Origin: Escherichia coli
GTDB taxonomy: Bacteria > Pseudomonadota > Gammaproteobacteria > Enterobacterales > Enterobacteriaceae
Reading direction: 5' to 3' (one strand)
DNA: 64,000 nt
NCBI RefSeq assembly: GCF_030013205.1
Contig: NZ_CP122648.1
Position 1 is the stretch's first letter. Each line of letters begins with the position of its first letter. A model generated the notes under the pieces. The model worked only from the letters and a program-made list of their open reading frames with translations, did not search any database and had not been told where the DNA came from. This document shows, piece after piece, positions 2,300 through 20,493 of this stretch. The translations under genes and the position numbers were made by a program.

Positions 2300-2563
2300 G
2301 CGCCTCGATTGCTACATGGAGGCGGGGCGCATTATAGCTACTTCCTTGAGTTTCTACATCCCCCAGATCAGTTTTTTCCGCCTAATACACGCAGCGTATT
2401 ATCACGAAAGCATTATAATTCATATAAAACCCATATTTTACAATGATATATGAGCGGAATTAACGCTACCACGATCACATAAAACAAGAATCATAAATTA
2501 ATAACCAGATATCGGAATATTCGCTCTCACAGGGATGGTTTACAAAATGCGTTATCGGTCTCA

Positions 2564-2568
2564 GCACC
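2564..2568. repeat. 5-bp target-site duplication GCACC, left copy, flanking IS2
   Basis: GCACC immediately outside the IS2 terminus at 2569; identical pentamer at 3900..3904. Confidence 0.85.
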
Positions 2569-2579
2569 TGGATTTGCCC

Positions 2580-3485
2580 CTATATTTCCAGACATCTGTT
2601 ATCACTTAACCCATTACAAGCCCGCTGCCGCAGATATTCCCGTGGCGAGCGATAACCCAGCGCACTATGCGGATGCCATTCGTTATAATGCTCGAACGCC
2701 TCTGCAAGGTTCTTTGCTGCCGTTAACCCGTCTGGTTTGGGCATGATACTGATGTAGTCACGCTTTATCGTTTTCACGAAGCTCTCTGCTATTCCGTTAC
2801 TCTCCGGACTCCGCACCGCCGTGTTCTTCGGTTCAAGTCCCAACATCCGGGCGAACTGGCGTGTTTCATTAGCCCGGTAGCATGAACCATTATCCGTCAG
2901 CCACTCCACTGGAGACGACGGAAGATCGTTGCCGAAGCGGCGTTCCACCGCTCCCAGCATGACGTCCTGTACTGTTTCACTGTTGAAGCCGCCGGTAGTC
3001 ACCGCCCAGTGCAGTGCCTCACGATCACAGCAGTCCAGCGCGAACGTGACACGCAGTCTCTCTCCGTTATCACAGCAGAACTCGAACCCGTCAGAGCACC
3101 ATCGCTGATTGCTTTCTTTCACGGCCACTCTGCCTGTATGTGCCCGTTTCGATGGCGGTACAGCAGGTTTTCGCTCAAGCAACAGCGCATTCTGGCGCAT
3201 GATCCGGTAAACACGTTTGGCATTGATCGCAGACATACCATCAAGTTCTGCCTGTCTGCGAAGCAGCGCCCATACCCGACGATAACCATACGTGGGCAGC
3301 TCTCCGATAACATGGTGTATACGGAGAAGCACATCCGTATCATCAGTGTGACGACTGCGGCGGCCATCCATCCAGTCATCGGTTCGTCTGAGAATGACGT
3401 GCAACTGCGCACGCGACACCCGGAGACAACGGCTGACTAAGCTTACTCCCCATCCCCGGGCAATAAGGGCGCGTGCGCTATCCAC
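2580..3485 (-). CDS. insD: IS2 transposase OrfB (InsD) frame, 301 aa; expressed as OrfAB fusion by -1 frameshift
   Basis: ORF track protein [30 protein letters not shown]... with DDE integrase-type core; recognised as IS2 InsD. Confidence 0.9.
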
Positions 3486-3808
3486 TTTTTTGCCCGTCCA
3501 TATTCAACGGCTTCTTTGAGGAGTTCATTTTCCATCGTTTTCTTGCCGAGCAGGCGCTGGAGTTCTTTAATCTGCTTCATGGCGGCAGCAAGTTCAGAGG
3601 CAGGAACAACCTGTTCTCCGGCGGCGACAGCAGTAAGACTTCCTTCCTGGTATTGCTTACGCCAGAGAAATAACTGGCTGGCTGCTACACCATGTTGCCG
3701 GGCAACGAGGGAGACCGTCATCCCCGGTTCAAAGCTCTGCTGAACAATTGCGATCTTTTCCTGTGTGGTACGCCGTCTGCGTTTCTCCGGCCCTAAGACA
3801 TCAATCAT
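3443..3808 (-). CDS. insC: IS2 OrfA (InsC) HTH protein, 121 aa
   Basis: [41 protein letters not shown]...; start placed at the internal Met of the 136-aa track ORF to give the 121-aa InsC. Confidence 0.85.
3485..3491 (-). promoter_or_regulatory. Programmed -1 ribosomal frameshift heptamer A-AAA-AAG at the insC/insD overlap
   Basis: Minus strand reads GCA AAA AAG TGG in the InsC frame; the -1 frame continues GTG GAT AGC... which is the InsD N-terminus (MDSARAL). Confidence 0.7.
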
Positions 3809-3899
3809 CTGTTCTCCAATGACTAGTCTAAAAACTAGTATTAAGACTATCACTTATTTAAGTGATACTGGTTGTCTGGAGATTCAGGGGGCCAGTCTA

Positions 3900-3904
3900 G
3901 CACC
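3900..3904. repeat. 5-bp target-site duplication GCACC, right copy, flanking IS2
   Basis: GCACC immediately after the IS2 end at 3899. Confidence 0.85.
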
Positions 3905-5319: not shown

Positions 5320-7638
5320 ATGAAAATTAGCGACGGAAACTGGTTGATTCAACCTGGCCTCAATTTGATTCACCCGCTTCAGGTGTTCGAGGTTGAACAG
5401 CAGGGTAATGAAATGGTGGTCTATGCTGCCCCCCGTGATGTGCGTGAACGAACCTGGCAGCTTGATACGCCTTTATTTACGCTGCGCTTTTTCTCCCCAC
5501 AGGAAGGTATTGTCGGTGTACGGATTGAGCATTTTCAGGGGGCGCTGAATAACGGTCCTCATTATCCGCTCAATATTTTGCAGGACGTGAAGGTCACAAT
5601 CGAAAACACAGAACGTTACGCTGAGTTTAAAAGTGGCAACTTAAGCGCGCGTGTCAGCAAAGGTGAGTTCTGGTCACTGGATTTTCTGCGCAACGGCGAA
5701 CGTATTACCGGTAGTCAGGTGAAAAATAATGGCTACGTGCAGGACACGAATAATCAACGAAATTATATGTTTGAGCGGCTGGATCTTGGCGTTGGCGAAA
5801 CAGTTTACGGTCTGGGAGAGCGCTTTACTGCCCTGGTGCGCAATGGCCAGACGGTAGAGACCTGGAACCGGGACGGCGGCACAAGTACTGAACAGGCGTA
5901 TAAAAATATTCCGTTCTATATGACTAACCGTGGTTATGGGGTACTGGTCAATCATCCTCAATGCGTCTCTTTTGAAGTGGGATCGGAGAAAGTCTCCAAA
6001 GTGCAGTTCAGCGTTGAGAGTGAATATCTCGAATACTTTGTTATCGACGGCCCGACGCCGAAAGCGGTACTTGATCGTTATACCCGTTTTACTGGTCGTC
6101 CGGCGCTGCCGCCCGCGTGGTCCTTCGGCCTGTGGCTAACCACTTCATTTACCACCAACTACGACGAAGCGACGGTAAACAGCTTTATCGATGGTATGGC
6201 GGAACGCAATCTGCCACTGCATGTTTTCCACTTTGACTGTTTCTGGATGAAAGCCTTCCAGTGGTGCGATTTTGAGTGGGACCCGCTGACTTTCCCGGAC
6301 CCGGAAGGGATGATCCGCCGCCTGAAAGCGAAAGGGCTAAAAATCTGCGTCTGGATTAACCCCTATATCGGGCAAAAATCCCCTGTCTTTAAAGAGTTAC
6401 AAGAGAAAGGCTATTTACTCAAACGCCCGGACGGTTCGTTATGGCAGTGGGATAAATGGCAGCCAGGTCTGGCGATTTATGACTTTACCAATCCGGATGC
6501 CTGCAAATGGTACGCCGACAAACTGAAAGGTCTGGTCGCGATGGGCGTTGATTGCTTTAAGACCGACTTTGGCGAACGTATTCCAACCGATGTTCAGTGG
6601 TTTGACGGTTCCGATCCGCAGAAAATGCATAACCATTATGCGTACATCTACAACGAACTGGTGTGGAAAGTGCTCAAGGAAACCGTTGGCGAGGAAGAAG
6701 CCGTCTTGTTTGCTCGCTCGGCCTCCGTTGGTGCGCAGAAATTCCCGGTACACTGGGGTGGTGACTGTTACGCTAACTACGAATCAATGGCGGAAAGCCT
6801 GCGCGGTGGTTTGTCTATTGGCCTTTCAGGTTTTGGTTTCTGGAGCCACGATATCGGCGGCTTTGAGAATACCGCTCCGGCGCACGTTTACAAACGCTGG
6901 TGCGCGTTTGGTTTGCTCTCCAGCCATAGCCGTTTACATGGCAGCAAATCTTATCGTGTGCCGTGGGCCTACGATGATGAGTCCTGTGATGTGGTGCGCT
7001 TCTTCACGCAACTGAAATGCCGCATGATGCCGTATCTGTATCGTGAAGCTGCTCGTGCGAACGCGCGGGGTACGCCGATGATGCGGGCCATGATGATGGA
7101 GTTCCCGGACGATCCGGCTTGTGATTACCTTGACCGTCAATACATGTTAGGCGACAACGTGATGGTTGCTCCGGTGTTCACTGAAGCGGGCGATGTGCAG
7201 TTCTACTTGCCGGAAGGTCGCTGGACACATCTGTGGCACAACGATGAACTCGATGGTAGTCGCTGGCATAAACAGCAGCACAGCTTCCTGAGTCTGCCCG
7301 TTTATGTGCGTGATAACACCCTACTGGCGCTGGGCAACAACGAGCAACGTCCCGATTACGCGTGGCACGAAGGCACGGCATTCCAGCTCTTTAATCTACA
7401 AGACGGGCATGAAGCCATCTGTGAAGTGCCCGCTGCTGACGGTTCCGTTCTTTTCACCCTGAAAGCGGCGCGTACTGGCAACACGATTACTGTGACTGGT
7501 GCGGGCGAGGCGAAGAACTGGACACTGTGCTTGCGCAATGTTGTGAAAGTAAATGGTCTGCAAGGTGGTTCGCAGGCTGAAAGTGAGCAGGGACTGGTGG
7601 TGACTCCTCAAGGGAATGCGCTGACAATTACGTTGTAA
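5320..7638 (+). CDS. yicI: Alpha-xylosidase YicI (glycoside hydrolase family 31), 772 aa
   Basis: 772-aa ORF with GH31 hallmarks (WIDMNE-like region ...KTDFGERIP...); recognised as YicI. Confidence 0.9.
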
Positions 7639-7651
7639 TCTATTGAAGAAT

Positions 7652-7683
7652 GCCGGATACGAATGGTTTTGTGTCGTATCCGG
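7652..7683 (+). terminator. Stem-loop (GCCGGATACG ... CGTATCCGG) just after the yicI stop; REP-like or terminator hairpin
   Basis: Perfect 9-10 bp inverted repeat 14 bp after the yicI TAA; no strong U-tract. Confidence 0.45.
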
Positions 7684-7932
7684 TAAATAATCTCACATCT
7701 GGTAATAAATATTTCTTCCATCGTATTTGCGAGCATGATCACGATTATTCATCACGAAAATGTGATCTGTGCCGAAAAATATCTATTAACCGCCCCGTTT
7801 TGTTTTATACATGTCCGGACTACGGACAGATTTTAGTATTGTTGTGAAATTATTCTGCTTTATATTTACCCTCAGAGATGGCAACTGAAGCTCTTCCACA
7901 TGGGGCTTCTTAATCTGTGATAAGGGTAAAAA

Positions 7933-9486
7933 ATGCAAATGATTACCTCGCGACAAAACAGATTATTACGATTCCTTTTACCACGAAGGGAATATACGAC
8001 TATTGTTACGATTGCCGGCTATTTAAATGTTTCGGAAAAAACCATTCAACGTGATTTACGTTTACTTGAGCAATGGCTGGAACAATGGCGAATAACCGTT
8101 GAGAAGCGTGCTGGCGCAGGTGTGATGTTAGACTCGAAGAATATTACTGATTTGCTGCATCTTGATCATTTGTTGGGAGCAGAATGTGAAGAGATTGATG
8201 GTGTAATGAATAATGCCAGGCGCGTTAAAATAGCGTCGCAGTTATTAAGTGAAACACCGAATGAAACGTCGATCAGTAAATTGTCAGAGCGCTATTTTAT
8301 CAGTGGAGCCTCTATTGTTAATGACCTGAGAGTGATTGAGTCCTGGCTTGCGCCGTTGGGGTTATCATTGATCCGAAGCCCAAGTGGTACGCATATTGAA
8401 GGTAGTGAAGGGCAAGTCCGACAGGCAATGGCATTACTGATTAACGGCATTATTAACCATAATGAGCCGCAAGGTGTCGTGTATTCACGTCTGGATCCCG
8501 GAAGTTATAAAGCATTAGTCCATTATTTTGGAGAAGAAGAGGTGTTATTTGTCCAGTCATTGTTACTGGATATGGAAAATGAATTAAGTTGGTCTTTGGG
8601 AGAGCCTTATTACGTTAACATTTTTACTCACATCCTTATTATGATGTATCGCAACACGCACGGGAATGCGTTATCCAGAGAAGAAGATCAAACCAGGCAA
8701 TATGATGAAAATATCTTTAATGTTGCCAGTCAGATGATTCATAAGATAGAACAACGAATTGCACATACATTGCCCGATGATGAAGTCTGGTTTATTTATC
8801 AATATATCATTTCATCAGGTGTGGCGATTGATGGACAAAAAGATGTTAGCATTATTTCACATATGCAGGCCAGCAATGAAGCGCGTCTGATTACCTGGCG
8901 TTTAATTACGGTATTCAGTGACATCGTGGACTGCGATTTTAGTGAAGACAGCGCATTATATGATGGCTTGTTGGTTCATATTAAGCCGCTGATTAACCGA
9001 CTAAATTATCGCATTCATATCCGTAATCCATTGCTGGAAGATATTAAAGCAGAATTAGCGGATGTCTGGCGGTTGACGCAATATGTGGTGAATCAGGTAT
9101 TTAAAACCTGGGGTGAGAATGCAGTGAGCGAGGATGAAGTAGGTTACCTGACCGTTCATTTTCAGGCTGCGATGGAGCGGCAAATTGCCCGTAAACGTGT
9201 ATTACTGGTCTGTTCAACCGGAATCGGAACTTCGCATCTACTGAAAAGCCGTATTCTGCGAGCATTTCCTGAATGGACGATTGTTGATGTTATTTCAGCA
9301 GCGAATTTATCACAGGTTTTGCCTGACAATATCGAACTGATTATTTCGACCATTAATTTGCCTACAGTCACTATGCCGGTCGCTTATGTTACCGCTTTTT
9401 TTAATGATGCCGATATTAAGCGAGTCACTGAAATGGTGATTACGGAAAAATTACATCATGCGACATCTCGGGTCGTTGAAATTTAA
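7933..9486 (+). CDS. PRD-containing transcriptional activator (BglG/LicR/MtlR type) with N-terminal HTH and C-terminal PTS EIIB-like domain, 517 aa
   Basis: N-terminal winged-helix region (TIVTIAGYLNVSEKTIQRDLRLLEQ), central PRD-like regions, C-terminal LLVCSTGIGTSHLLKSRI (EIIB-Gat-like phosphorylatable Cys motif); heads a PTS operon. Confidence 0.7.
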   Translation: MQMITSRQNRLLRFLLPRREYTTIVTIAGYLNVSEKTIQRDLRLLEQWLEQWRITVEKRAGAGVMLDSKNITDLLHLDHLLGAECEEIDGVMNNARRVKIASQLLSETPNETSISKLSERYFISGASIVNDLRVIESWLAPLGLSLIRSPSGTHIEGSEGQVRQAMALLINGIINHNEPQGVVYSRLDPGSYKALVHYFGEEEVLFVQSLLLDMENELSWSLGEPYYVNIFTHILIMMYRNTHGNALSREEDQTRQYDENIFNVASQMIHKIEQRIAHTLPDDEVWFIYQYIISSGVAIDGQKDVSIISHMQASNEARLITWRLITVFSDIVDCDFSEDSALYDGLLVHIKPLINRLNYRIHIRNPLLEDIKAELADVWRLTQYVVNQVFKTWGENAVSEDEVGYLTVHFQAAMERQIARKRVLLVCSTGIGTSHLLKSRILRAFPEWTIVDVISAANLSQVLPDNIELIISTINLPTVTMPVAYVTAFFNDADIKRVTEMVITEKLHHATSRVVEI

Positions 9487-9512
9487 TGTCAGAATTTTAT
9501 GAGGTATGACGA

Positions 9513-9983
9513 ATGGACATAACAAAAATCCTGAATACGAATCGCGTTATTTTAGATATGCAAGCGACGAATAAAGCGGAGGCGATTGAAGAATTAACTA
9601 ATCTTCTCAAAAAAGATGGTGCGATCGATTGTCGGGAAACCTTTATTAAAGATGTCTGGCAGCGCGAAGCGGAAGGCTCGACTGGTTTTGAAAATCATAT
9701 TGCGATCCCGCATGGTAAATCTTCTGCGGTAATTAATACCACGCTGGCTATCGGGCGTACCCGGCAGGATATTCCCTGGGAAACACTGGATGGCAGTAGC
9801 GTACGCTGTATTATTTTATTTGCGGTACGTCTTGAAGATCAAAATACCACTCATATCCGTTTACTTTCCCAGGTCGCGGGCGCGCTTGCAGATGATGACA
9901 TCATAGCGCAATTGCTGGTTGAGACGAGCCCGCAAAAAATCATTGATCTCTTTAGTCAGTATGCACAATCCGATGTCTACTAA
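9513..9983 (+). CDS. PTS EIIA component, fructose/mannitol (type 2) family, 156 aa
   Basis: ...GFENHIAIPHGKSSAV... conserved phospho-His region of EIIA-2 domains. Confidence 0.75.
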   Translation: MDITKILNTNRVILDMQATNKAEAIEELTNLLKKDGAIDCRETFIKDVWQREAEGSTGFENHIAIPHGKSSAVINTTLAIGRTRQDIPWETLDGSSVRCIILFAVRLEDQNTTHIRLLSQVAGALADDDIIAQLLVETSPQKIIDLFSQYAQSDVY

Positions 9984-10000
9984 ATAACAGGGAGTATCTC

Positions 10001-10315
10001 ATGAATATTGTCTGTGTTGCCGCCTGCACGGCGGGTATTGCTCACACCTATATTGCTCGTGAAAAGTTAATTAAAGGGGCAAAAGCACTGGGCCACACCA
10101 TTAAAGTTGAAACCCAGGGAACCATTGGTACAGAAAACGAATTGCAGGCGGCAGAGATCTCTGCTGCTGACGTCGTGATTCTTGCTGTGGATGTGAAAAT
10201 AAAAGGAGAAGAACGTTTTACCAATAAACGCATTGTGCGAGTAAAGACAGAGATCGTCATTAAATCGCCCGTTCAATTTCTTGAAAAGGTCGAAAAATCA
10301 CTGGGAAATAAATGA
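10001..10315 (+). CDS. PTS EIIB component, fructose-like family, 104 aa
   Basis: MNIVCVAACTAGIAHTYIAREKL...: N-terminal CxxCxxGIAHT phospho-Cys motif typical of fructose-type EIIB. Confidence 0.75.
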   Translation: MNIVCVAACTAGIAHTYIAREKLIKGAKALGHTIKVETQGTIGTENELQAAEISAADVVILAVDVKIKGEERFTNKRIVRVKTEIVIKSPVQFLEKVEKSLGNK

Positions 10316-10339
10316 TCCTTATACTGGAGGGATCTTAAT

Positions 10340-11431
10340 ATGAAAGAAAATAAAATTCCGGTTTCACAGGAAATTAAAAAACATTTATTAACCGGCATCT
10401 CGTGGATGATACCCCTTATTGTGGCCGCCGGGATATGTATTGCGTTGGGGCAAGTTCTTGGCGGTACAGATGTTGGTGAAAAAACAGGAACAATCCCGTG
10501 GATGCTTAATCAGATTGGCGGCTGGGGAATGGGGCTGATTGTGCCGCTGATTAGCGCGGCAATTGCCTATTCTATTGCCGATCGTCCCGGATTTGCCCCG
10601 GGCCTGATTGTCGGCTTTCTCTGTGGGCAAATCCATACCGGATTTATTGGCGGTATGTTGGGTGGTTTCCTGGTGGGCTACACCATTTTGCTACTTAAAC
10701 GCTATATTCGCCTGCCGCAGTCGATGCAAGGACTCATGCCAATCATGGTGTTGCCGGTATTAAGCACCATTATCGGTGGGCTGTTAATGATGACGCTGAT
10801 TGGTAAACCCATCGCCTGGTTACAAGAAGCACTGATTCATTTGCTCGAGTCGATGCAGGGCGGATCGCGCTTCCTGATGGGGGCCATACTTGGCGCGATG
10901 GCAACCTTCGATTTCGGTGGTCCGGTCAACAAAACCATGTCGCTGTTTTCCGATGGCTTGCTGGTCAGTGGCGTCTACGGACCAGAAGCCGTGAAATTTG
11001 TCGGCTCAATCATCCCTCCGTTTGGCATCACACTTTCGTTCTTACTGACACGCCATAAATACACCCGTGCGGAGCGCGAGGCGCTGAAAGCCGCGTTTCC
11101 GATGGGGATCTGCATGATCACTGAAGGAGTCATTCCGATCGCCGCGCGTGACCTGTTGCGAGTAGTGGGATCTTGTGTGGTGGCATCGGCGGTCGCGGGC
11201 GGCTTAATCATGGTGTGGGGCGTGGAGAGTCCGGTTCCACATGGCGGCATGTTTGTTGTGCCTCTGTTCACCCATCCTCTGCTGTTTTGCCTGGCGCTGG
11301 GTATAGGCACGGTGATTTGTGGCGTGATGCTTTCACTCTGGAAGAAACCGGTAACGGAACGCGACGAAGAGTTTGACGAACTGAGCGATCAAAAGCTGAA
11401 AGATGAAGAGATCACTTTCACCCTCGAATAA
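10340..11431 (+). CDS. PTS EIIC permease component, fructose-like family, 363 aa
   Basis: Polytopic membrane protein immediately downstream of EIIA/EIIB; Gly-rich TM helices typical of EIIC-Fru. Confidence 0.7.
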   Translation: MKENKIPVSQEIKKHLLTGISWMIPLIVAAGICIALGQVLGGTDVGEKTGTIPWMLNQIGGWGMGLIVPLISAAIAYSIADRPGFAPGLIVGFLCGQIHTGFIGGMLGGFLVGYTILLLKRYIRLPQSMQGLMPIMVLPVLSTIIGGLLMMTLIGKPIAWLQEALIHLLESMQGGSRFLMGAILGAMATFDFGGPVNKTMSLFSDGLLVSGVYGPEAVKFVGSIIPPFGITLSFLLTRHKYTRAEREALKAAFPMGICMITEGVIPIAARDLLRVVGSCVVASAVAGGLIMVWGVESPVPHGGMFVVPLFTHPLLFCLALGIGTVICGVMLSLWKKPVTERDEEFDELSDQKLKDEEITFTLE

Positions 11432-11442
11432 CCGGAGGCCCT

Positions 11443-12294
11443 ATGTTTGCCGATATGAAAAGTATGGTGATGAAAGCCTGGCATGAACATTACGCCTTGC
11501 TGGCGATCAACTGTATGAATCTGGAAAGTGCTCGCGCAGCTATCCGCGTGGCGGAGAAGAATCGCGCTCCGATCATTCTCAATCTCTATCAGGGGCATCT
11601 GGCGCATTTTCCTGCACCCGTCGCGGCGGCAGTGGTTAAAACGCTCGCGGAATCTGCCTCAGTACCGGTCACTCTGGCGCTTGATCATGGCAAAAATCCG
11701 GACTGTATTCGTCAGGCGTTTCGTGCTGGTTTCAGCGGATTAATGATTGATGCTTCTGCTTTTCCCCTGGAGGAAAACGTGCGCCAGACCAAGGCGGTGG
11801 TGGAACTCGCCGCCAGCGCGCAGCTCTGCGTTGAAGGCGAACTGGGCCATCTGGCAGATGCGCCGCGTTACGACCAGGCCGCCAATGCAGACATGATGAC
11901 GCAACCCACTGATGTGGAAGCGTTTATCGCGCAGACAGGCATTGATCTACTGGCCGTCTCGGTAGGCACGGCGCACGGCATGTACGCGCCTGGTGTTGTA
12001 CCTGCTATTGATTTTCAGCGTCTGGCGGAGATTTTCCACTGCTCGAGCGTGCCTCTGGCATTACATGGTGGTAGCGGTACGCCGTTCGATCAGCTCCAGC
12101 TCTGTACGACTCTGGGGGTAGCAAAAATCAACGTGGGGGCGGCCATTTTTGAACGGGGGAAATCCGCGCTCCTGCATACCCTCTGTCACGATATATCCAT
12201 TGAACTGGTGGACGCGCTGAAAGCTATGGAACTGGCCTTCGAAGAAGCGATTACACCGTATTTACAGGCGAGCGGCTCTATCGGCAAAGCCTGA
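11443..12294 (+). CDS. Class II ketose-bisphosphate aldolase (GatY/KbaY/FbaA family), 283 aa
   Basis: Contains LDHG, GTAHG and HGGSG motifs of class II zinc aldolases. Confidence 0.75.
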   Translation: MFADMKSMVMKAWHEHYALLAINCMNLESARAAIRVAEKNRAPIILNLYQGHLAHFPAPVAAAVVKTLAESASVPVTLALDHGKNPDCIRQAFRAGFSGLMIDASAFPLEENVRQTKAVVELAASAQLCVEGELGHLADAPRYDQAANADMMTQPTDVEAFIAQTGIDLLAVSVGTAHGMYAPGVVPAIDFQRLAEIFHCSSVPLALHGGSGTPFDQLQLCTTLGVAKINVGAAIFERGKSALLHTLCHDISIELVDALKAMELAFEEAITPYLQASGSIGKA

Positions 12295-12374
12295 TTCATT
12301 TTCTGTCATGGCCTTTATGCCAGTGCAATAACGCACCGGCAGGGCGGACTACACGCTGAAACTGGAGATTTAAC

Positions 12375-13235
12375 ATGTTAGTTTCGATGAAAGAATTACT
12401 GCAACCTACCCGCCAGCACGGCTTTGCCATTGGCGCATTTAATGTGGCGGATAACTGTTTCCTTCGCGCAGTCGTGGATGAAGCAGAAGCGACAAATACT
12501 CCGGCGATTATTGCCATCCATCCCAGCGAACATGATTTTGTGGGCGATGCCTTTTTCGCTCACGTTCGCGAAATTACCCAGCGTAGTCCGGTCCCGTTTG
12601 TACTGCACCTCGATCATGGTGCCTCTGTAGAGCATGTTTTGCGTGCGATTCGCTGCGGATTTACCTCAGTAATGATCGACGGTTCGCTGCTGCCGTATGA
12701 AGAAAACGTGGCGCTGACCGCAGAAGTGGTTCGCCTCGCTCACGCGGTTGGAGTGTCGGTTGAGGGTGAACTGGGAACCATCGGACAAACAGGAACGTCG
12801 GTAGAAGGTGGTGTTTCACAAGTGACCTACACAGATCCGGCGCAGGCCGCCGATTTTATTGCTCGTACAGGTGCCGACACTCTGGCTGTGGCGATTGGTA
12901 CAGCGCATGGCATCTATCCAAAAGGGATGCAGCCGAAGCTGCAAATGGACATTTTGCGCGACATTGCCGGACGTATTGATATTCCGCTGGTGCTACACGG
13001 TGGTTCGGCAAACCCGGACGCGGAGATTGCTGAATCAGTTACGCTCGGCGTCGGCAAAATCAATATCTCCAGCGATATGAAATACGCCTATTTCCAGAAA
13101 GTGCGTGAAATTCTCGCTAAAGAGAGCTGGTGGGACCCGAACGTCATCTATCCGGATGCGATTAACGCGGCGCGGGAAGTCATTCGCCACAAAATGAAAC
13201 TGTTCGGTTCGCTCGGTAAAGCATCACTGTACTAA
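12375..13235 (+). CDS. Class II ketose-bisphosphate aldolase paralogue (GatY/KbaY family), 286 aa
   Basis: LHLDHG, GELG, GTAHG, LHGGS motifs; second tandem paralogue. Confidence 0.75.
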   Translation: MLVSMKELLQPTRQHGFAIGAFNVADNCFLRAVVDEAEATNTPAIIAIHPSEHDFVGDAFFAHVREITQRSPVPFVLHLDHGASVEHVLRAIRCGFTSVMIDGSLLPYEENVALTAEVVRLAHAVGVSVEGELGTIGQTGTSVEGGVSQVTYTDPAQAADFIARTGADTLAVAIGTAHGIYPKGMQPKLQMDILRDIAGRIDIPLVLHGGSANPDAEIAESVTLGVGKINISSDMKYAYFQKVREILAKESWWDPNVIYPDAINAAREVIRHKMKLFGSLGKASLY

Positions 13236-13240
13236 GCCAG

Positions 13241-13264
13241 AAGGGCGGGGTGACCCGCCTTTTA
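13241..13264 (+). terminator. GC-rich hairpin plus T-run between aldolase 2 and the kinase (possible intra-operon attenuator or partial terminator)
   Basis: GGGCGGG-GTGA-CCCGCCT followed by TTTT, 6 bp after the aldolase stop. Confidence 0.4.
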
Positions 13265-13282
13265 CGCAACAAGGAACGAGAT

Positions 13283-14215
13283 ATGCACTATCTGGGGTTG
13301 GATATTGGTGGGACCAAAATCGCCGCCGTCGTCATGGATGCGCATGGCTGGGAGATTCGCCGTTACCGCTGCCCGACGCAAAAGTCGACATATCAACAAT
13401 TTGTCTCATGCGTTGTGGCGTTTATCGAGCAGATTAGGCGGGACGTTCAACGACCGATGCTGACAGGGATCGCCTTACCCGGCAGTATCTCGCCACTCAC
13501 TGGCCTGATTAAAAACGCGAATATTCAGGTGATTAACGGTCATGCGTTACAGGCTGATTTGCAGCAATTGCTTGGGCAACCGGTGGTGATAGCCAATGAT
13601 GGTAACTGTTTCGCGCTATCAGAAGCTTGCGACGGTGCCGGGCAAGATTATGACGTGGTATTTGGTATTACGCTTGGTACGGGCTGCGGCGGTGGCATTG
13701 CCATCAAGCAACGACCGTTTATAGGGGCCTGGGGAAATGCTGCCGAATGCGGTCATATCACGTTGCCAGGCTATACGGAGCAGGAAGATGGTCCATCAGT
13801 CAGTTGCTATTGCGGCAAACACAACTGCGTGGAGTCGTTTGTTTCCGGCAGCGGTTTTAGTGAACGCTATCAACAGATGACTGGTAACTTGCTCACTCCT
13901 GCGGCGATTGTCACCCTGGCACAACGTGGTGATGCTTGTGCCATGCAGCAGGTGGCACGTTTTCGCCAACAGCTTGCCCGCACGCTGGCAACCATCGTTA
14001 ACGTTGTTGACCCTGGCGTGATTGTGATCGGCGGCGGGCTTTCGAATGTGGAACTGCTTATCACCGCTCTGAACGCAGAAGTTGCTCCACTGGTTTTCAC
14101 CGATCAATTCACCACTCCCATTGTAAAAGCACAGCACGGCGACAGTAGCGGAATGCGTGGCGCTGCCTGGCTTGCTATGCGCAACGGAGAAGCCAATGAA
14201 ACGTTCACAAATTAA
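13283..14215 (+). CDS. ROK-family sugar kinase, ~310 aa
   Basis: MHYLGLDIGGTKIAAV... N-terminal ATP motif and CYCGKHNCVESF zinc-binding ROK signature; start moved to the ATG with AAGGAA Shine-Dalgarno rather than the upstream GTG of the track ORF. Confidence 0.75.
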   Translation: MHYLGLDIGGTKIAAVVMDAHGWEIRRYRCPTQKSTYQQFVSCVVAFIEQIRRDVQRPMLTGIALPGSISPLTGLIKNANIQVINGHALQADLQQLLGQPVVIANDGNCFALSEACDGAGQDYDVVFGITLGTGCGGGIAIKQRPFIGAWGNAAECGHITLPGYTEQEDGPSVSCYCGKHNCVESFVSGSGFSERYQQMTGNLLTPAAIVTLAQRGDACAMQQVARFRQQLARTLATIVNVVDPGVIVIGGGLSNVELLITALNAEVAPLVFTDQFTTPIVKAQHGDSSGMRGAAWLAMRNGEANETFTN

Positions 14216-14876
14216 TTATGTTATTGATAAAGCACATGCCATTGCGCAGACCTTCCGCGTTTGTTTGCCAGAGTTCGCCTATTTTACGGTGGATGACTGG
14301 CTGCAGCTGGAACGGGATAACTGGCAAGAAGTGGTCGACTTACAGCTCGGTTGGGATATCACCGATTTTGGTCGTGGTGATTTCAACCAAACGGGACTAA
14401 CACTGCTAACGATGCGCAACGGCGCGCTGGGGTCGGCGGCATATCCAAAACCGTATGCTGAGAAAATGTTGCAGATCCAACAAGATCAGCAGACTCCTTG
14501 GCATTTTCACACCCACAAAATGGAAGATATCCTCAATCGGGGCGGTGGAGACTTATGCATGCAGTTGGCCTGGGCCAACGAAGCCAATCTCTGTGATGAT
14601 CAACGAGTCATTACCGTGAGTGTTGATGGTCAGCGGCGTACCATGAAACCTGGTGAAACGCTGGTGCTAAAGCCGGGGCAGGGCATTTGCCTGCCGCCGC
14701 GTCTGTATCATCGCTTCTGGGCGGAAAAAGCGTTTGTTCTCGGCTGGGAAATTTCGATGGTAAATGATGACCAACATGATAACCATTTTCTTGAGCCGGG
14801 AGGACGTTTTCCGGCGATAGAAGAAGATGAACCGGTGAAATGGTTATTGTGTAGTGAGTATGCTGTTTTGCGGTAA
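14196..14876 (+). CDS. Cupin-fold sugar isomerase, D-lyxose/D-mannose isomerase-like, ~226 aa
   Basis: Size and His-rich segment (WHFHTHKMEDI) resemble cupin-type D-lyxose isomerases; start taken at the ATG preceded by GGAGA; overlaps the kinase stop. Family assignment is from memory. Confidence 0.5.
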   Translation: MKRSQINYVIDKAHAIAQTFRVCLPEFAYFTVDDWLQLERDNWQEVVDLQLGWDITDFGRGDFNQTGLTLLTMRNGALGSAAYPKPYAEKMLQIQQDQQTPWHFHTHKMEDILNRGGGDLCMQLAWANEANLCDDQRVITVSVDGQRRTMKPGETLVLKPGQGICLPPRLYHRFWAEKAFVLGWEISMVNDDQHDNHFLEPGGRFPAIEEDEPVKWLLCSEYAVLR

Positions 14877-14885
14877 TAGCGGGGA

Positions 14886-14909
14886 CGCTAACGTTGATAT
14901 CCGTTAGCG
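14886..14909. terminator. Palindromic hairpin (CGCTAACG-TTGATATC-CGTTAGCG) between convergent island operon and yicH
   Basis: Perfect 8-bp stems with an 8-nt loop in the 42-bp spacer; could act bidirectionally. Confidence 0.45.
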
Positions 14910-14918
14910 CCCGCGTAT

Positions 14919-16628
14919 TTACTGCACCGGCTCCGTCGATGTAACTTCGCCACTGGAAACGACGCCTGCATTCATGGTTTGAGTCACTTGCTGCTTTGTG
15001 GCGTTCACGGCATGCAATTGCCCGCTAACCGTAGGTTTCAGCGGGACATTGGCCTGAATATCGCCACTGGCAGTAAGCTGAATATTGCCGTCGCCAGTCA
15101 ACGGTAATTCAGGCCATCCCCACTGTTGCAAAATATTCACCGGCACACCGCGTCCATTCAGGCTGATATGGGTCTGACGTTGTGGCGTTTGTGAAACACT
15201 GGCGGTGGCTTCCAGAATGCCTTTTTCAGTAAATGCACTCAGTTCGCTGATATTCACCGTGCTGCTGTTGGCGGTCAGCGCCAGCGATGGGCGACGAACA
15301 TCAACACGATTGAATGTCGCGGCGGCGGCATTCAGATTCGCCGAACCACTCCAGACGCCCCATTTATGATCGGTAACCAGCGTCAGGTTGGCACCGTAAC
15401 CATCGAGCGCGGTGAGCTGCCACGGGAAGTCAGGGTCGATATCAATGATCAGATTGCGGCTGGCGCTAAATCTCTTCAGTTGCAGGCTGTTTAACCAGCC
15501 GGGTGTCGTTTCCATCCACAACTGTTGCCAGTTTTTCGGCAAGGTATATTCCAGCCCGGCAATTGCCGCATCATCAAGGATCAACGTTTTCCCGTTGCGC
15601 AGCCAGTTCCCGGACGTTCTGACCATGCCCCCTTCCCAGCGGCTGGTGAACTGGCGCAGTGCTACGCCCTGCGGGGAAAATTCTGCGTTTATAATCAGAT
15701 CAAATAAATGCAGCGAGCCATAAATAAACTCGCTAGCGTTCATCGACAGTTTGCCTTCCTGTGTCTGCCAGTCATCTTTACTGAAGGTCATGTTGCGCAA
15801 GCTGAGATCGAGGTCGGTCACCGCCCAGTCCGGACCTTGCAAACGAGCATCGATCACTTCCAGGCGACCAATCTGCAACGACGGGACAGAGCGTAATGGC
15901 GCAAAGAAGTCGGTTAGCGATTTTTCGCTTTGTAGACGGATATCCGCCAGCCGCAGATTTTCCACTTGCCAGCTGCCGTCGGCGTTACGCTGCGCGTTTC
16001 CGGTTAATGTCCCGCGGGCGATGTCGGCACCCAGGTTAGTCAGCGTAACGCGATCGTTATCAATACTGCCTTCAATCAGTACATTGGTGGCAGGAACATC
16101 ATTGAGCGAAAGCGATCCGGCACTAAACTGAATCTGCGCCTTCGTACCCAGCACTTTACCGGCTTCTGGTGACCACGGAACCACGCCGCCATTTACCCGC
16201 TGCGCGCTCAGTTTCCATTCGCTATTCGGGCTATTAAACGCCATATCACGCAGTTGCAGACGATCGGCTTTGAACGGTAGCGGCGCGGTCTGGTCGGTGA
16301 GATTCAGCGTCCCGTTTTCCAGCAGGATGGTATCGACATGGCGTGGTTCGGTCAGTTGCCGACTGCTTAGCGCAATGTCGACACTTTTTGCCACCAGGGT
16401 CGCGGGCTGACCATCACGGCCGAACGTGACGTTCTCCAGCACGATATGAGATGGCGCGGAAAAACGGTGATCCATCGCCCCGAAGGCCAGATGATAGTCG
16501 CTATTCTCGGAAACCCATGCGCTGATATGTTCTGCTCCCCAGCGGGTTTGCAGAAGAAAATAGAGGCCAGCGATCACCACTAACAGAGCGATGAAAATGT
16601 AGAGAAGCAGCTTCCCAATAAATTTCAT
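14919..16628 (-). CDS. yicH: AsmA-family protein YicH, 569 aa
   Basis: N-terminal signal-anchor MKFIGKLLLYIFIALLVVIAGLYF; start taken at the internal Met of the 577-aa track ORF. Confidence 0.85.
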   Translation of the reverse strand: MKFIGKLLLYIFIALLVVIAGLYFLLQTRWGAEHISAWVSENSDYHLAFGAMDHRFSAPSHIVLENVTFGRDGQPATLVAKSVDIALSSRQLTEPRHVDTILLENGTLNLTDQTAPLPFKADRLQLRDMAFNSPNSEWKLSAQRVNGGVVPWSPEAGKVLGTKAQIQFSAGSLSLNDVPATNVLIEGSIDNDRVTLTNLGADIARGTLTGNAQRNADGSWQVENLRLADIRLQSEKSLTDFFAPLRSVPSLQIGRLEVIDARLQGPDWAVTDLDLSLRNMTFSKDDWQTQEGKLSMNASEFIYGSLHLFDLIINAEFSPQGVALRQFTSRWEGGMVRTSGNWLRNGKTLILDDAAIAGLEYTLPKNWQQLWMETTPGWLNSLQLKRFSASRNLIIDIDPDFPWQLTALDGYGANLTLVTDHKWGVWSGSANLNAAAATFNRVDVRRPSLALTANSSTVNISELSAFTEKGILEATASVSQTPQRQTHISLNGRGVPVNILQQWGWPELPLTGDGNIQLTASGDIQANVPLKPTVSGQLHAVNATKQQVTQTMNAGVVSSGEVTSTEPVQ

Positions 16629-16716
16629 GGTCTTCCATCCCGTGAAATGCACATAAGGGAGTTATGCACGATTTACGCGCAATCCTCAAGGCGGGAATGG
16701 TGAAAGAGGTGAGACT

Positions 16717-16741
16717 GCGGCGGTAATTATCTTACCGCCGC
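16717..16741 (-). terminator. Hairpin (GCGGCGGTAA-TTATC-TTACCGCCGC) downstream of xanP
   Basis: 10-bp inverted repeat 8 bp beyond the xanP stop. Confidence 0.4.
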
Positions 16742-16748
16742 CAGTGAA

Positions 16749-18140
16749 TTACTGTTTTTCTGGTGGGAAAATCAGATTCAGCACGATGGCAGTAATACCG
16801 CCCGCGGCGATCCCGGAGGAGAGCAGGTTTTTCAGCCACTCAGGGGCAAACTGCAAAATCAGCGGCTGCTGAGAGACGCCCAGACCAACCGCCAGCGACA
16901 GCGCGATAATCAGAATCGCCCGACGGTTCAGCGGCTCACGAGACACAATGCGCACACCGGAGGCGGCGATGGTGCCAAACATTACAAGCGTTGCGCCGCC
17001 CAGAACCGGTTCTGGAATATGTTGTACAAAACCGCTCACTGCCGGGAACAGACCCAGCACGATCAACATCAGCGCGACGACAAAACCGACATAGCGGCTG
17101 GCAACCCCGGTCAACTGGATCACTCCGTTGTTCTGCCCGAAGCAGGAGTTCGGGAAGGTGTTAAACACCGCCGAAACAAACGAGTTCAGGCCGTTTGCTA
17201 GCACGCCGCCTTTCAGGCGTTTCATGTACAGCGGACCGGACACTGGCTGTTCGGAAACGTCAGAGGTCGCCGTGATATCGCCAATGGTTTCCAGTGAAGT
17301 GATCATAAAGACCAGCATCAGGGGTAGCAGCAGACTCCATTCGATGCCAAGACCGTAATAGAGCGGCGTTGGTACCATAATCAGTTCTTGCGTCATCGGT
17401 TCGTTGCTTTCTGGCAACATGCCCATAAACCACGCCAGCGCATATCCGGCCGCCATCGCAATCACCAGTGAGGCCACGCGCAAATATGGGTTACGCTGAC
17501 GGTTAAGCAGGATAATTAAGGCTAAGACCACGCCCGCCAGCAGCAGATTTTTCGGTGCGCCGAAGGTGTTATCGCTCATGGCTGCGTAACCGCCGCCAAT
17601 GGACGTTAACCCAACCTGAATTAGCGACAGGCCGATAATCATCACCACAACGCCAGAAACTAGCGGCGTAATAATGCGGCGCGCCAGATGCAGAACGCGG
17701 GAGATCACCATCTCAGTGCAACTTGCCAGCATCAACGTGCCGAACAAAGCCGCCATCATGGTAGGAACATCAGCACCACCGGTTTTCAGCGCGGTACCGC
17801 CCATAATCAGCGGGGCAACAAAGTTGAAGCTGGTGCCCTGAATAGACAACAGCCCGGAGCCAACCGGACCCCAGGCCTTAATTTGAATAATCGATGCCAC
17901 ACCGGAGGCAAACAGCGACATACTAATAATGTGTTGCGTGTCTTGTGCCGGTAAACCCAGCGCCTGGCAGATTAATAGCGCTGGCGTGATCACCGCAACG
18001 AACATCGCCAGCAAATGCTGACAGGCGGCAAACAGAGTTTGAGGAAGCGGCGGACGATCTTCAAGACGGTAAATCAGTTCGCTGTTTTGAGTCTGCGCAA
18101 CCGGTTGCGCATTTTCTGACTCGAGGGTGGAAACAGACAT
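16749..18140 (-). CDS. xanP: Xanthine:H+ symporter XanP (NCS2 family), 463 aa
   Basis: [35 protein letters not shown]...; start at the Met giving 463 aa. Confidence 0.9.
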
Positions 18141-19626: not shown

Positions 19627-20493
19627 ATGAAAAAGCGTCGGAAGGAACCGGAAACGCTACGTGAACACTGTCGCCATATTTTTGGTGACGAGCCGCCAGT
19701 GCTCTGTGTATGGGAAACGGAATTTGATTACGCAGATGCCGAACTCAAGGCGCTGGCGGCTAAAGAGTGGCAACAGATAGGCGAATGGGATTTGAGTGCT
19801 TACTATGTACTCAATCTCGTTTATAACGAACCGATGCAAATAGAGCTGTTTCGCTATCTGTTTCCGCTATGCCTGGCGCAATGGCATGAAACCGTTTTAG
19901 CTGGCGGTTATGGTGATCACTTCGAAGAATCCTTAATGAAGGCATTGCGTCGGCCCTATCTCTGGCAGGAGATGATGAATGCTTCCCAACGCCAGCAGGT
20001 ACGGCAATTTTTACTGGAAACCGCGTTGCAGCGTATGGATAACGAGCGTGGTTTCAATAATGTTCTTTGCTGGCTGGCGGTGTTCAATACTCTGGGCGGG
20101 GCCGCGCCGTTAATTCATTCTCTCTGGTCAAGCTGGTGGGTGCTGGATACGCCGGGAAAAGCGGTGTGTGCTATTCAGTATGCCGCGCATCTAATTTATC
20201 CCATAGAAGCCAATCCGTTATGGTCGCAAGAATGGTTAGGCTGGGGGCATCCATTAGGTCATAAAGATGGCTGGTCCTCTGAGAATCGCGCTTTTCTTCG
20301 CCAAATGTTAACACCTGAAATGATTGTGGCTGGCGTACAGGCAGCGGCTGAAATTCTGCGTGGTGAACCGGAAGGCGCAATGGCGGCGCGAATTGCGCAG
20401 GATGCGTATGAGGCAGTGGATATCATCACTATCCAGATTGAAGATTTACTGCGTGACTTGTCTTGTGATGAGTCTGGTCATGCGTTGGAGTAG
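19627..20493 (+). CDS. Hypothetical protein, 288 aa, no recognisable domain
   Basis: ATG 3 nt after the gltS stop; C-terminus overlaps the recG stop by 16 bp; E. coli-like codon usage; Trp-rich, no predicted TM segments. Confidence 0.6.
   Translation: MKKRRKEPETLREHCRHIFGDEPPVLCVWETEFDYADAELKALAAKEWQQIGEWDLSAYYVLNLVYNEPMQIELFRYLFPLCLAQWHETVLAGGYGDHFEESLMKALRRPYLWQEMMNASQRQQVRQFLLETALQRMDNERGFNNVLCWLAVFNTLGGAAPLIHSLWSSWWVLDTPGKAVCAIQYAAHLIYPIEANPLWSQEWLGWGHPLGHKDGWSSENRAFLRQMLTPEMIVAGVQAAAEILRGEPEGAMAARIAQDAYEAVDIITIQIEDLLRDLSCDESGHALE

Follow-up and report, generated by a model that had tools for sequence, protein, structure and literature searches.

A hairpin between the convergent frz operon and yicH of Escherichia coli as a candidate stem-loop of both 3' ends

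Convergent gene pairs of E. coli are reported to end at bidirectional terminators that encode a hairpin, do not resemble intrinsic terminators and work independently of Rho; their hairpin is reported to set the position at which RNA polymerases collide head-on (bioRxiv 10.1101/2022.10.23.513370). REP hairpins present in 3'UTRs have been described as combined terminator and stabiliser elements (bioRxiv 10.64898/2026.03.23.713779). The frz operon of extraintestinal pathogenic E. coli, at whose end the hairpin studied here is located, has been summarised (PMC8777976), and it has been named as the genomic region 'yicH..yicI' with a length of 7,227 bp (PMC12928451).

With the bidirectional terminators (Ju et al., 2019, as summarised in bioRxiv 10.1101/2022.10.23.513370), the hairpin between frz and yicH shares a short convergent spacer filled by a single palindrome, and RNA that folds into a stable hairpin whichever strand is transcribed and that lacks a canonical U-tract. 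Overlapping 3' ends, Rho independence and dependence on collision are described there for those terminators, whereas the frz-yicH site is known from its sequence; they were studied in K-12, while the frz-yicH hairpin belongs to a segment that varies among strains and is missing from K-12. Like REP elements, it is a stable extragenic palindrome between genes, and REP-type sequences occupy the isomerase-yicH spacer of Citrobacter and Kosakonia; unlike REP elements, it is present in a single copy and is unrelated in sequence to the REP consensus of the GCCGGATG type. A G+C-rich stem, a loop of no more than 8 nt and a position right after a stop codon recall canonical intrinsic terminators, as does the UAUUUUUAC found 3' of the stem on the frz strand of the common allele. 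However, in the 64-kb stretch of E. coli DNA that we analysed as a whole, and to which we refer as the window, the U-tract (AUUUACUG) is degenerate, it is absent on the yicH strand, and a consensus scan calls no terminator at this site.

We read the palindrome as an RNA stem-loop that the 3' ends of the frz operon (+ strand) and of yicH (- strand) probably have in common, and we assign to this reading a probability of roughly 0.65. It would then be an ordinary, previously unremarked hairpin of the terminator type, placed between convergent genes at the end of a known operon. The frz operon gains with it a defined 3' boundary element, a point that matters little beyond annotation.

The frz-yicH spacer and its hairpin

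The segment called an island in the preliminary description is the known frz operon, which contributes to fitness in extraintestinal pathogenic E. coli. Strains CFT073 and BEN2908 are among its carriers, and its expression is reported for late stationary cultures limited in oxygen. According to the annotation of the + strand, which was taken from a RefSeq record identical to the window over 14400-15400, its genes encode a BglG/PRD-type regulator, the IIA, IIB and IIC components of a fructose-family PTS, a pair of class II aldolases, a ROK-family protein and a lyxose-isomerase-like cupin (Table 1). The last of these genes has a Citrobacter orthologue on which the Pfam family Lyx_isomer was found. 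A link of the same gene to z5688, the D-lyxose isomerase of O157:H7, was dropped for this locus since O157:H7 genomes show the K-12-type junction.

Table 1. Coordinates of the hairpin, its parts and the neighbouring features in the window.
Feature	Position	Strand	Basis or remark
Core stem, 5' arm, CGCTAACG	14886-14893		perfect complement of 14902-14909
Loop, 8 nt, TTGATATC	14894-14901		direct reading and fold
Core stem, 3' arm, CGTTAGCG	14902-14909		direct reading, repeat finder
Stem extension, 5' side, GCGGGGA, A14885 bulged	14879-14885		minimum-energy folds of both strands
Stem extension, 3' side, CCCGCGT	14910-14916		folds and allele alignment
Full imperfect inverted repeat, 25-nt arms 14869-14893 and 14902-14926, 76% complementary	14869-14926		repeat finder
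Weak U-rich tail, ATTTACTG, 4 U of 8, overlapping the yicH stop codon	14917-14924	+	
Last frz gene, sugar isomerase of the D-lyxose/D-mannose family, cupin	14196-14876	+	RefSeq annotation of the matching record
yicH, AsmA family protein, 569-codon ORF, convergent, stop codon 14919-14921	14919-16628	-	
yicI, stop codon 7636-7638	5320-7638		
frz cluster	7933-14876	+	ORF list and annotation
Hairpin of the left junction, immediately 3' of the yicI stop codon, GCCGGATACGA, 11-nt loop, TCGTATCCGGT	7652-7684		homologue of the K-12 hairpin

Between the stop codon of the isomerase gene (TAA, 14874-14876, + strand) and that of yicH (TAA on the - strand) lie 42 bp (14877-14918), which had been described as consisting almost entirely of a hairpin, and our analysis bears this out. 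The bases 14884-14912, read directly, are GACGCTAACGTTGATATCCGTTAGCGCCC (with their surroundings, 14880-14920, cggggaCGCTAACGttgatatcCGTTAGCGcccgcgtatttA); in them, two perfectly complementary arms of 8 nt enclose a loop of 8 nt. Five of the eight perfect pairs of this core stem are G-C, and the bulged extension adds approximately six further pairs. When traced to its full imperfect length, the repeat takes in both stop codons together with the last codons of both genes, and the hairpin begins only 9 nt past the yicH stop codon.

The RNA of the 42-nt spacer folds with -21.3 kcal/mol when transcribed from the + strand and with -22.7 kcal/mol from the - strand (z-scores of -3.75 and -4.74, respectively). 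A stretch of 56 nt that includes both stop codons reaches -30.2 kcal/mol (+) and -25.5 kcal/mol (-), with z-scores of -4.98 and -4.51. In each of these four cases, none of 200 shuffled sequences folded as well as the hairpin. This stable fold on both strands, and a placement that occupies the interval separating the stop codons of the two converging genes, support our reading of a 3'-end stem-loop shared by the two transcripts.

Taken by itself, a perfect 8-bp hairpin is not rare in 64 kb: the window contains 20 perfect 8-bp stems with loops of 3-10 nt, compared with 7.7 ± 2.6 in shuffled sequences. Since bare stems of this length are common, the significance of the hairpin rests on its placement in a convergent spacer of 42 bp, on its extension, and on its conservation with compensatory changes.

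Terminator features on the two strands

For the allele carried by the window, the consensus terminator scan left 14884-14912 uncalled on both strands. The stem has the properties of an intrinsic terminator, being G+C-rich and at least 5 bp long with a loop within the range of 3-8 nt, but a U-tract of at least 5 U in 8 nt, located 0-2 nt past the stem, is found on neither strand of the window. Past the extended stem, its + strand reads AUUUACUG (4/8 U) and its - strand UAUUACCG (3/8 U), and the longest fold of this allele sequesters the U residues of its tail. Only a second allele, the CFT073 type, has such a tract: on the + strand its tail reads TATTTTTAC / UAUUUUUA, with 6/8 U and a T5 tract on the frz strand. 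As neither strand of the window carries a good U-tract, the hairpin is not a canonical intrinsic terminator there. A score in the style of d'Aubenton-Carafa was negative throughout, with the + strand of the CFT073-type allele nearest to zero; as its formula is uncalibrated against current energy parameters, we place no reliance on it. What distinguishes the reported bidirectional terminators of convergent genes, namely a position between convergent genes and a hairpin on both strands, is present here, with z-scores ranging from -3.75 to -4.98. It is the absence of a call by the scan, together with the differences in the U-tract between the alleles, that leads us to regard the element as a stem-loop which the 3' ends of both transcripts probably share.

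From its structure, position, copy number, conservation and compensatory changes we infer that the hairpin would serve both termination and stabilisation of mRNA. RNA polymerase arriving from either side would transcribe one and the same stem of about -21 to -23 kcal/mol. The nascent hairpin would pause or terminate the enzyme within the 42-bp spacer, and this should limit antisense read-through into the opposite gene. Remaining at the 3' end after release, it could then shield the two mRNAs against 3' exonucleases, a protection that has been shown for REP hairpins (bioRxiv 10.64898/2026.03.23.713779). The common allele resembles an intrinsic terminator on the frz strand, with a stem followed by UAUUUUUAC, and the window allele, in which the stem is longer and the U-tract poorer, would be the weaker one. 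The yicH strand has no U-tract; hence, release on this strand would need either Rho or a head-on collision of polymerases.

The main alternative takes the hairpin as a one-way intrinsic terminator for frz only, with yicH ending by other means (e.g., through Rho) and the presence of the hairpin beside it being incidental. It differs from the shared stem-loop only in the use that yicH makes of the hairpin, and it draws on the strand asymmetry just outlined: the T-tract is found on the + side only, as TATTTTTAC in ~1,360 genomes and as TATTTAC in the window, and past the stem the - strand is C-rich (UCCCCGCUAUUACC) and has no U-tract. Nevertheless, only a few nucleotides separate the hairpin from the yicH stop codon, and its fold on the - strand is just as good; it stays beside yicH in strain CUPF09, from which frz has been deleted; and hairpins without a U-tract are reported to be bidirectional between convergent genes (bioRxiv 10.1101/2022.10.23.513370). 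We consider the one-way terminator unlikely, yet it is the best placed of the rival explanations.

Alleles and conservation of the stem

Among 5,426 complete E. coli genomes, 1,592-1,601 carry the hairpin, each in one copy, always on the chromosome and always at this junction. A second copy was found neither elsewhere in the 64-kb window, where there was a single match even when three mismatches were allowed, nor in the matched genomes, and a family of REP or MITE repeats was ruled out on the ground of this single copy in the window and in all 1,592 matched genomes. A permissive Rfam search of both strands of the region 7000-17000 gave no match at E <=1.

Two major alleles exist. After the stop codon, the window type (~240 genomes) reads taaTAGCGGGGA-CGCTAACG-ttgatatc-CGTTAGCG-CCCGCGTAT-TTA, and the commoner CFT073 type (~1,360 genomes) reads taaTAACGGGGAA-CGCTAGCG-ctgatatc-CGCTAGCG-TCCTTATTT-TTA; rarer variants comprise ~8 intermediate alleles of the window type (90-99% identity) and 136 of the CFT073 type (95-99%). 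The two major alleles are ~83% identical over 66 nt (a divergence of the spacer of ~17-23%), and the surrounding 1 kb is ~96% identical. Within the core stem, the only changes between them are A14891 to G and T14904 to C, which together convert an A-T into a G-C pair. In the consensus fold, the extension pair G14884-C14910 becomes A-U in the CFT073 type and G-U in CUPF09. The loop varies among the alleles (CTGATATC, TTGGTCTC), and the stem is kept. In MOD1-EC7003, a genome of an Escherichia clade, the T5 tail occurs together with the A-T stem, and the divergent strain CUPF09 has the loop TTGGTCTC and a perfect stem of 15 pairs.

Standard pairs occupy 89.6% of the pair cells, compared with 26-46% in controls with the 3' partners shifted by 1-3 columns. 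The covariation set consists of five distinct sequences with two or three independent changes, and with these five sequences the covariation score was reached by 18/500 shuffles and the percentage paired by 97/500. The compensatory pair changes of the two alleles, from A-T to G-C and from G-C to A-T, are the basis on which we favour selection on structure. A change that keeps the stem also keeps the DNA palindrome, and covariation does not strictly separate a role of the RNA from one of the DNA.

The hairpin has outlasted rearrangements next to it. In CUPF09 (NZ_CP182142.1, locus L008, 4417-4722), yicJ, yicI and the whole of frz are deleted and the hairpin still adjoins yicH; what is left there is a decayed stretch of ~60 bp from the last frz gene together with the hairpin, and tRNA-Sec lies ~300 bp from yicH. 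In AREA_502 (NZ_CP123325.1, locus L007, 1-200), an IS1 takes the place of the end of the last frz gene, with its terminal repeat abutting the hairpin (…GGAGTCATTACCGGGGAACGCTAGCG…).

These comparisons also bear on the view that the palindrome is neutral, has no function of its own and is kept by descent, possibly as the relic of an old repeat element. Around eight perfect 8-bp hairpins are expected by chance per 64 kb, the carriers among E. coli are all closely related so that conservation alone is weak, and genomes of the K-12 type do without the hairpin. However, the two core-stem changes complement each other even though the spacer has diverged by ~17-23% between the alleles, unrelated hairpins fill the same spacer in other genera, and the single copy speaks against a repeat family. 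We regard a neutral palindrome as distinctly improbable.

In all genomes of other genera that are syntenic at this place, the spacer between the isomerase gene and yicH, which is 32-595 bp long, holds at least one stable hairpin. The sequences of these hairpins are unrelated to that of E. coli and are mostly of the REP type: Citrobacter has the REP-type GCCCGGTAAGCG..CGCCACCGGGC, Kosakonia has CCCGGATGCGGCG..CGCCTTATCCGGG, and Phytobacter and Superficieibacter have arrays of CTCTCCCTCAGGGAGAGGG units. In Superficieibacter electus (locus L026) and Phytobacter ursingii (locus L019), tandem repeat arrays, whose unit contains the palindrome CTCTCCCTCAGGGAGAGGG, have enlarged the spacer to 558-595 bp.

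The trait that recurs at this convergent junction may hence be a hairpin rather than one given sequence. Tentatively, and with somewhat less confidence than doubt, the locus could be viewed as a place where hairpin modules turn over under selection for bidirectional termination of the collision type. Escherichia has a single-copy hairpin and Citrobacter and Kosakonia REP-type ones, and K-12-like strains would have taken over the yicI hairpin once frz and the frz-yicH hairpin had been deleted together. If turnover is the correct view, the two major alleles would be alternative solutions to one requirement: in the window allele the stem is longer and the U-tract poor, whereas the CFT073 allele has a shorter stem and a T5 tract. 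The locus also offers a small natural test case for the shares that stem and U-tract have in a terminator between convergent genes, a value that derives from the two compensatory alleles and from the non-homologous hairpins present at the same junction elsewhere.

The K-12 junction and the history of the frz segment

It had been proposed to compare the junction with that of K-12, and that the hairpin marks the right boundary of the accessory segment. The latter holds: the segment absent from K-12 has the hairpin as its final ~30 bp, and homology of K-12 to the window region 14400-15400 resumes at 14918, one base ahead of the yicH stop codon. The alignment did not, however, bear out insertion of an island at a terminator that already existed here. 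The K-12 spacer between yicI and yicH has 52 bp and a hairpin of its own, GCCGGGTACG-TCTGAGT-CGTACCCGGC (locus L001, 5964-5990), which has the same positional role between yicH and a convergent upstream gene but is a different, non-homologous element. Its homologue in the window follows yicI, at the other end of the segment (7652-7684), where it differs from the K-12 version by a compensatory change from a G-C to an A-T pair and by a longer loop. This left-junction hairpin is probably the terminator of yicJI, upstream of the frz regulator gene, and a related palindrome is also located 3' of yicI in Citrobacter youngae. A K-12-type junction with the yicI hairpin in the equivalent place is found in 3,815 of the 5,426 complete E. 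coli genomes, which have no frz-type hairpin, versus ~1,600 with the frz type; that so many genomes do without it counts against our reading.

The variable segment therefore extends from the yicI hairpin to the yicH stop codon (~7685 to ~14917) and carries its own hairpin at the right end. We rejected the notion that the K-12 junction is a simple splice of the two window junctions, as the 11 bp GAGATTGATGT that separate the K-12 hairpin from the yicH stop codon can be traced to neither side; the end points of the deletion consequently have an uncertainty of a few bases (left, ~7685; right, ~14917).

Relatives of the last frz gene outside E. coli were found in 30 genomes, and in 17-18 of them the gene adjoins a convergent yicH. 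These comprise the genome of a divergent Escherichia clade, eleven Citrobacter, Phytobacter, Kosakonia, Superficieibacter and another member of the Enterobacteriaceae. In C. youngae, the order is yicJ-yicI-regulator-IIA-IIB-IIC-aldolase-aldolase-isomerase-yicH-xanP-gltS-recG, which is that of the window except for the missing ROK gene. In E. coli, the ROK-family gene is situated between the second aldolase gene and the isomerase gene (window 13250-14215 versus C. youngae locus L039, 9091-10678), so that the gene content of frz varies between genera although the flanks are identical.

The preliminary description had raised insertion of the segment at a terminator, and the yicJ-yicI-frz-yicH-xanP order of C. 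youngae, together with the adjacency of frz and yicH in other genera, speaks against this direction of events. With a synteny common to several genera, a segment that was already present in the ancestor and later deleted from K-12-like lineages appears more economical, and thus likelier, than a gain. The ~7.2-kb segment would therefore be better seen as an ancestral enterobacterial cluster that was lost in K-12-like lineages than as an inserted island. What typically bounds a mobile island, i.e., direct repeats, a mobility gene and a variable location, was not observed: the two junctions share no word of at least 8 nt as a flanking direct repeat (the comparison gave only chance 6-7-mers, such as GTAAATA at 7683 versus its reverse complement at 14916), the annotated genes of the segment include no integrase or transposase, and the identical location and gene order in C. 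youngae count against a variable genomic location.

We consider it highly improbable that the palindrome acts at the level of DNA, be it by binding a regulator dimer symmetrically or by serving recombination or insertion where a mobile island ends: perfect 8-bp arms with a fixed spacing of 8 bp at the edge of a variable segment, and the IS1 that landed right beside the hairpin in one genome, would suit such a role, but the segment has neither mobility genes nor flanking direct repeats of at least 8 bp, the identical gene order of Citrobacter argues against mobility, the site is located at the 3' ends of both genes and far from any promoter, and the half-sites changed together between the alleles, which alters rather than preserves a recognition sequence.

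The frz-yicH hairpin is not the only palindrome in the vicinity. A second perfect hairpin, with a GCGGCGGT stem nested up to 10 bp, is present at 16717-16741 in the spacer between the xanP stop codon and the yicH start codon and is probably the xanP terminator. Further downstream, between gltS and recG, a 288-codon ORF for a hypothetical protein (19627-20493) occupies a place where K-12 has no gene. On the other side of the segment, the window carries a copy of IS2 (2560-3900; ORFs 2580-3485 and 3443-3853, - strand) between tRNA-Sec (2205-2299) and yicJ. It is absent from strain CFSAN018748, which otherwise matches fully around the hairpin. This IS2 ends ~27 bp ahead of the start codon of yicJ (3928), where it could alter the expression of yicJI, and an IS2 at yicJ is also found in ETEC strains from swine, e.g., ETEC1748.
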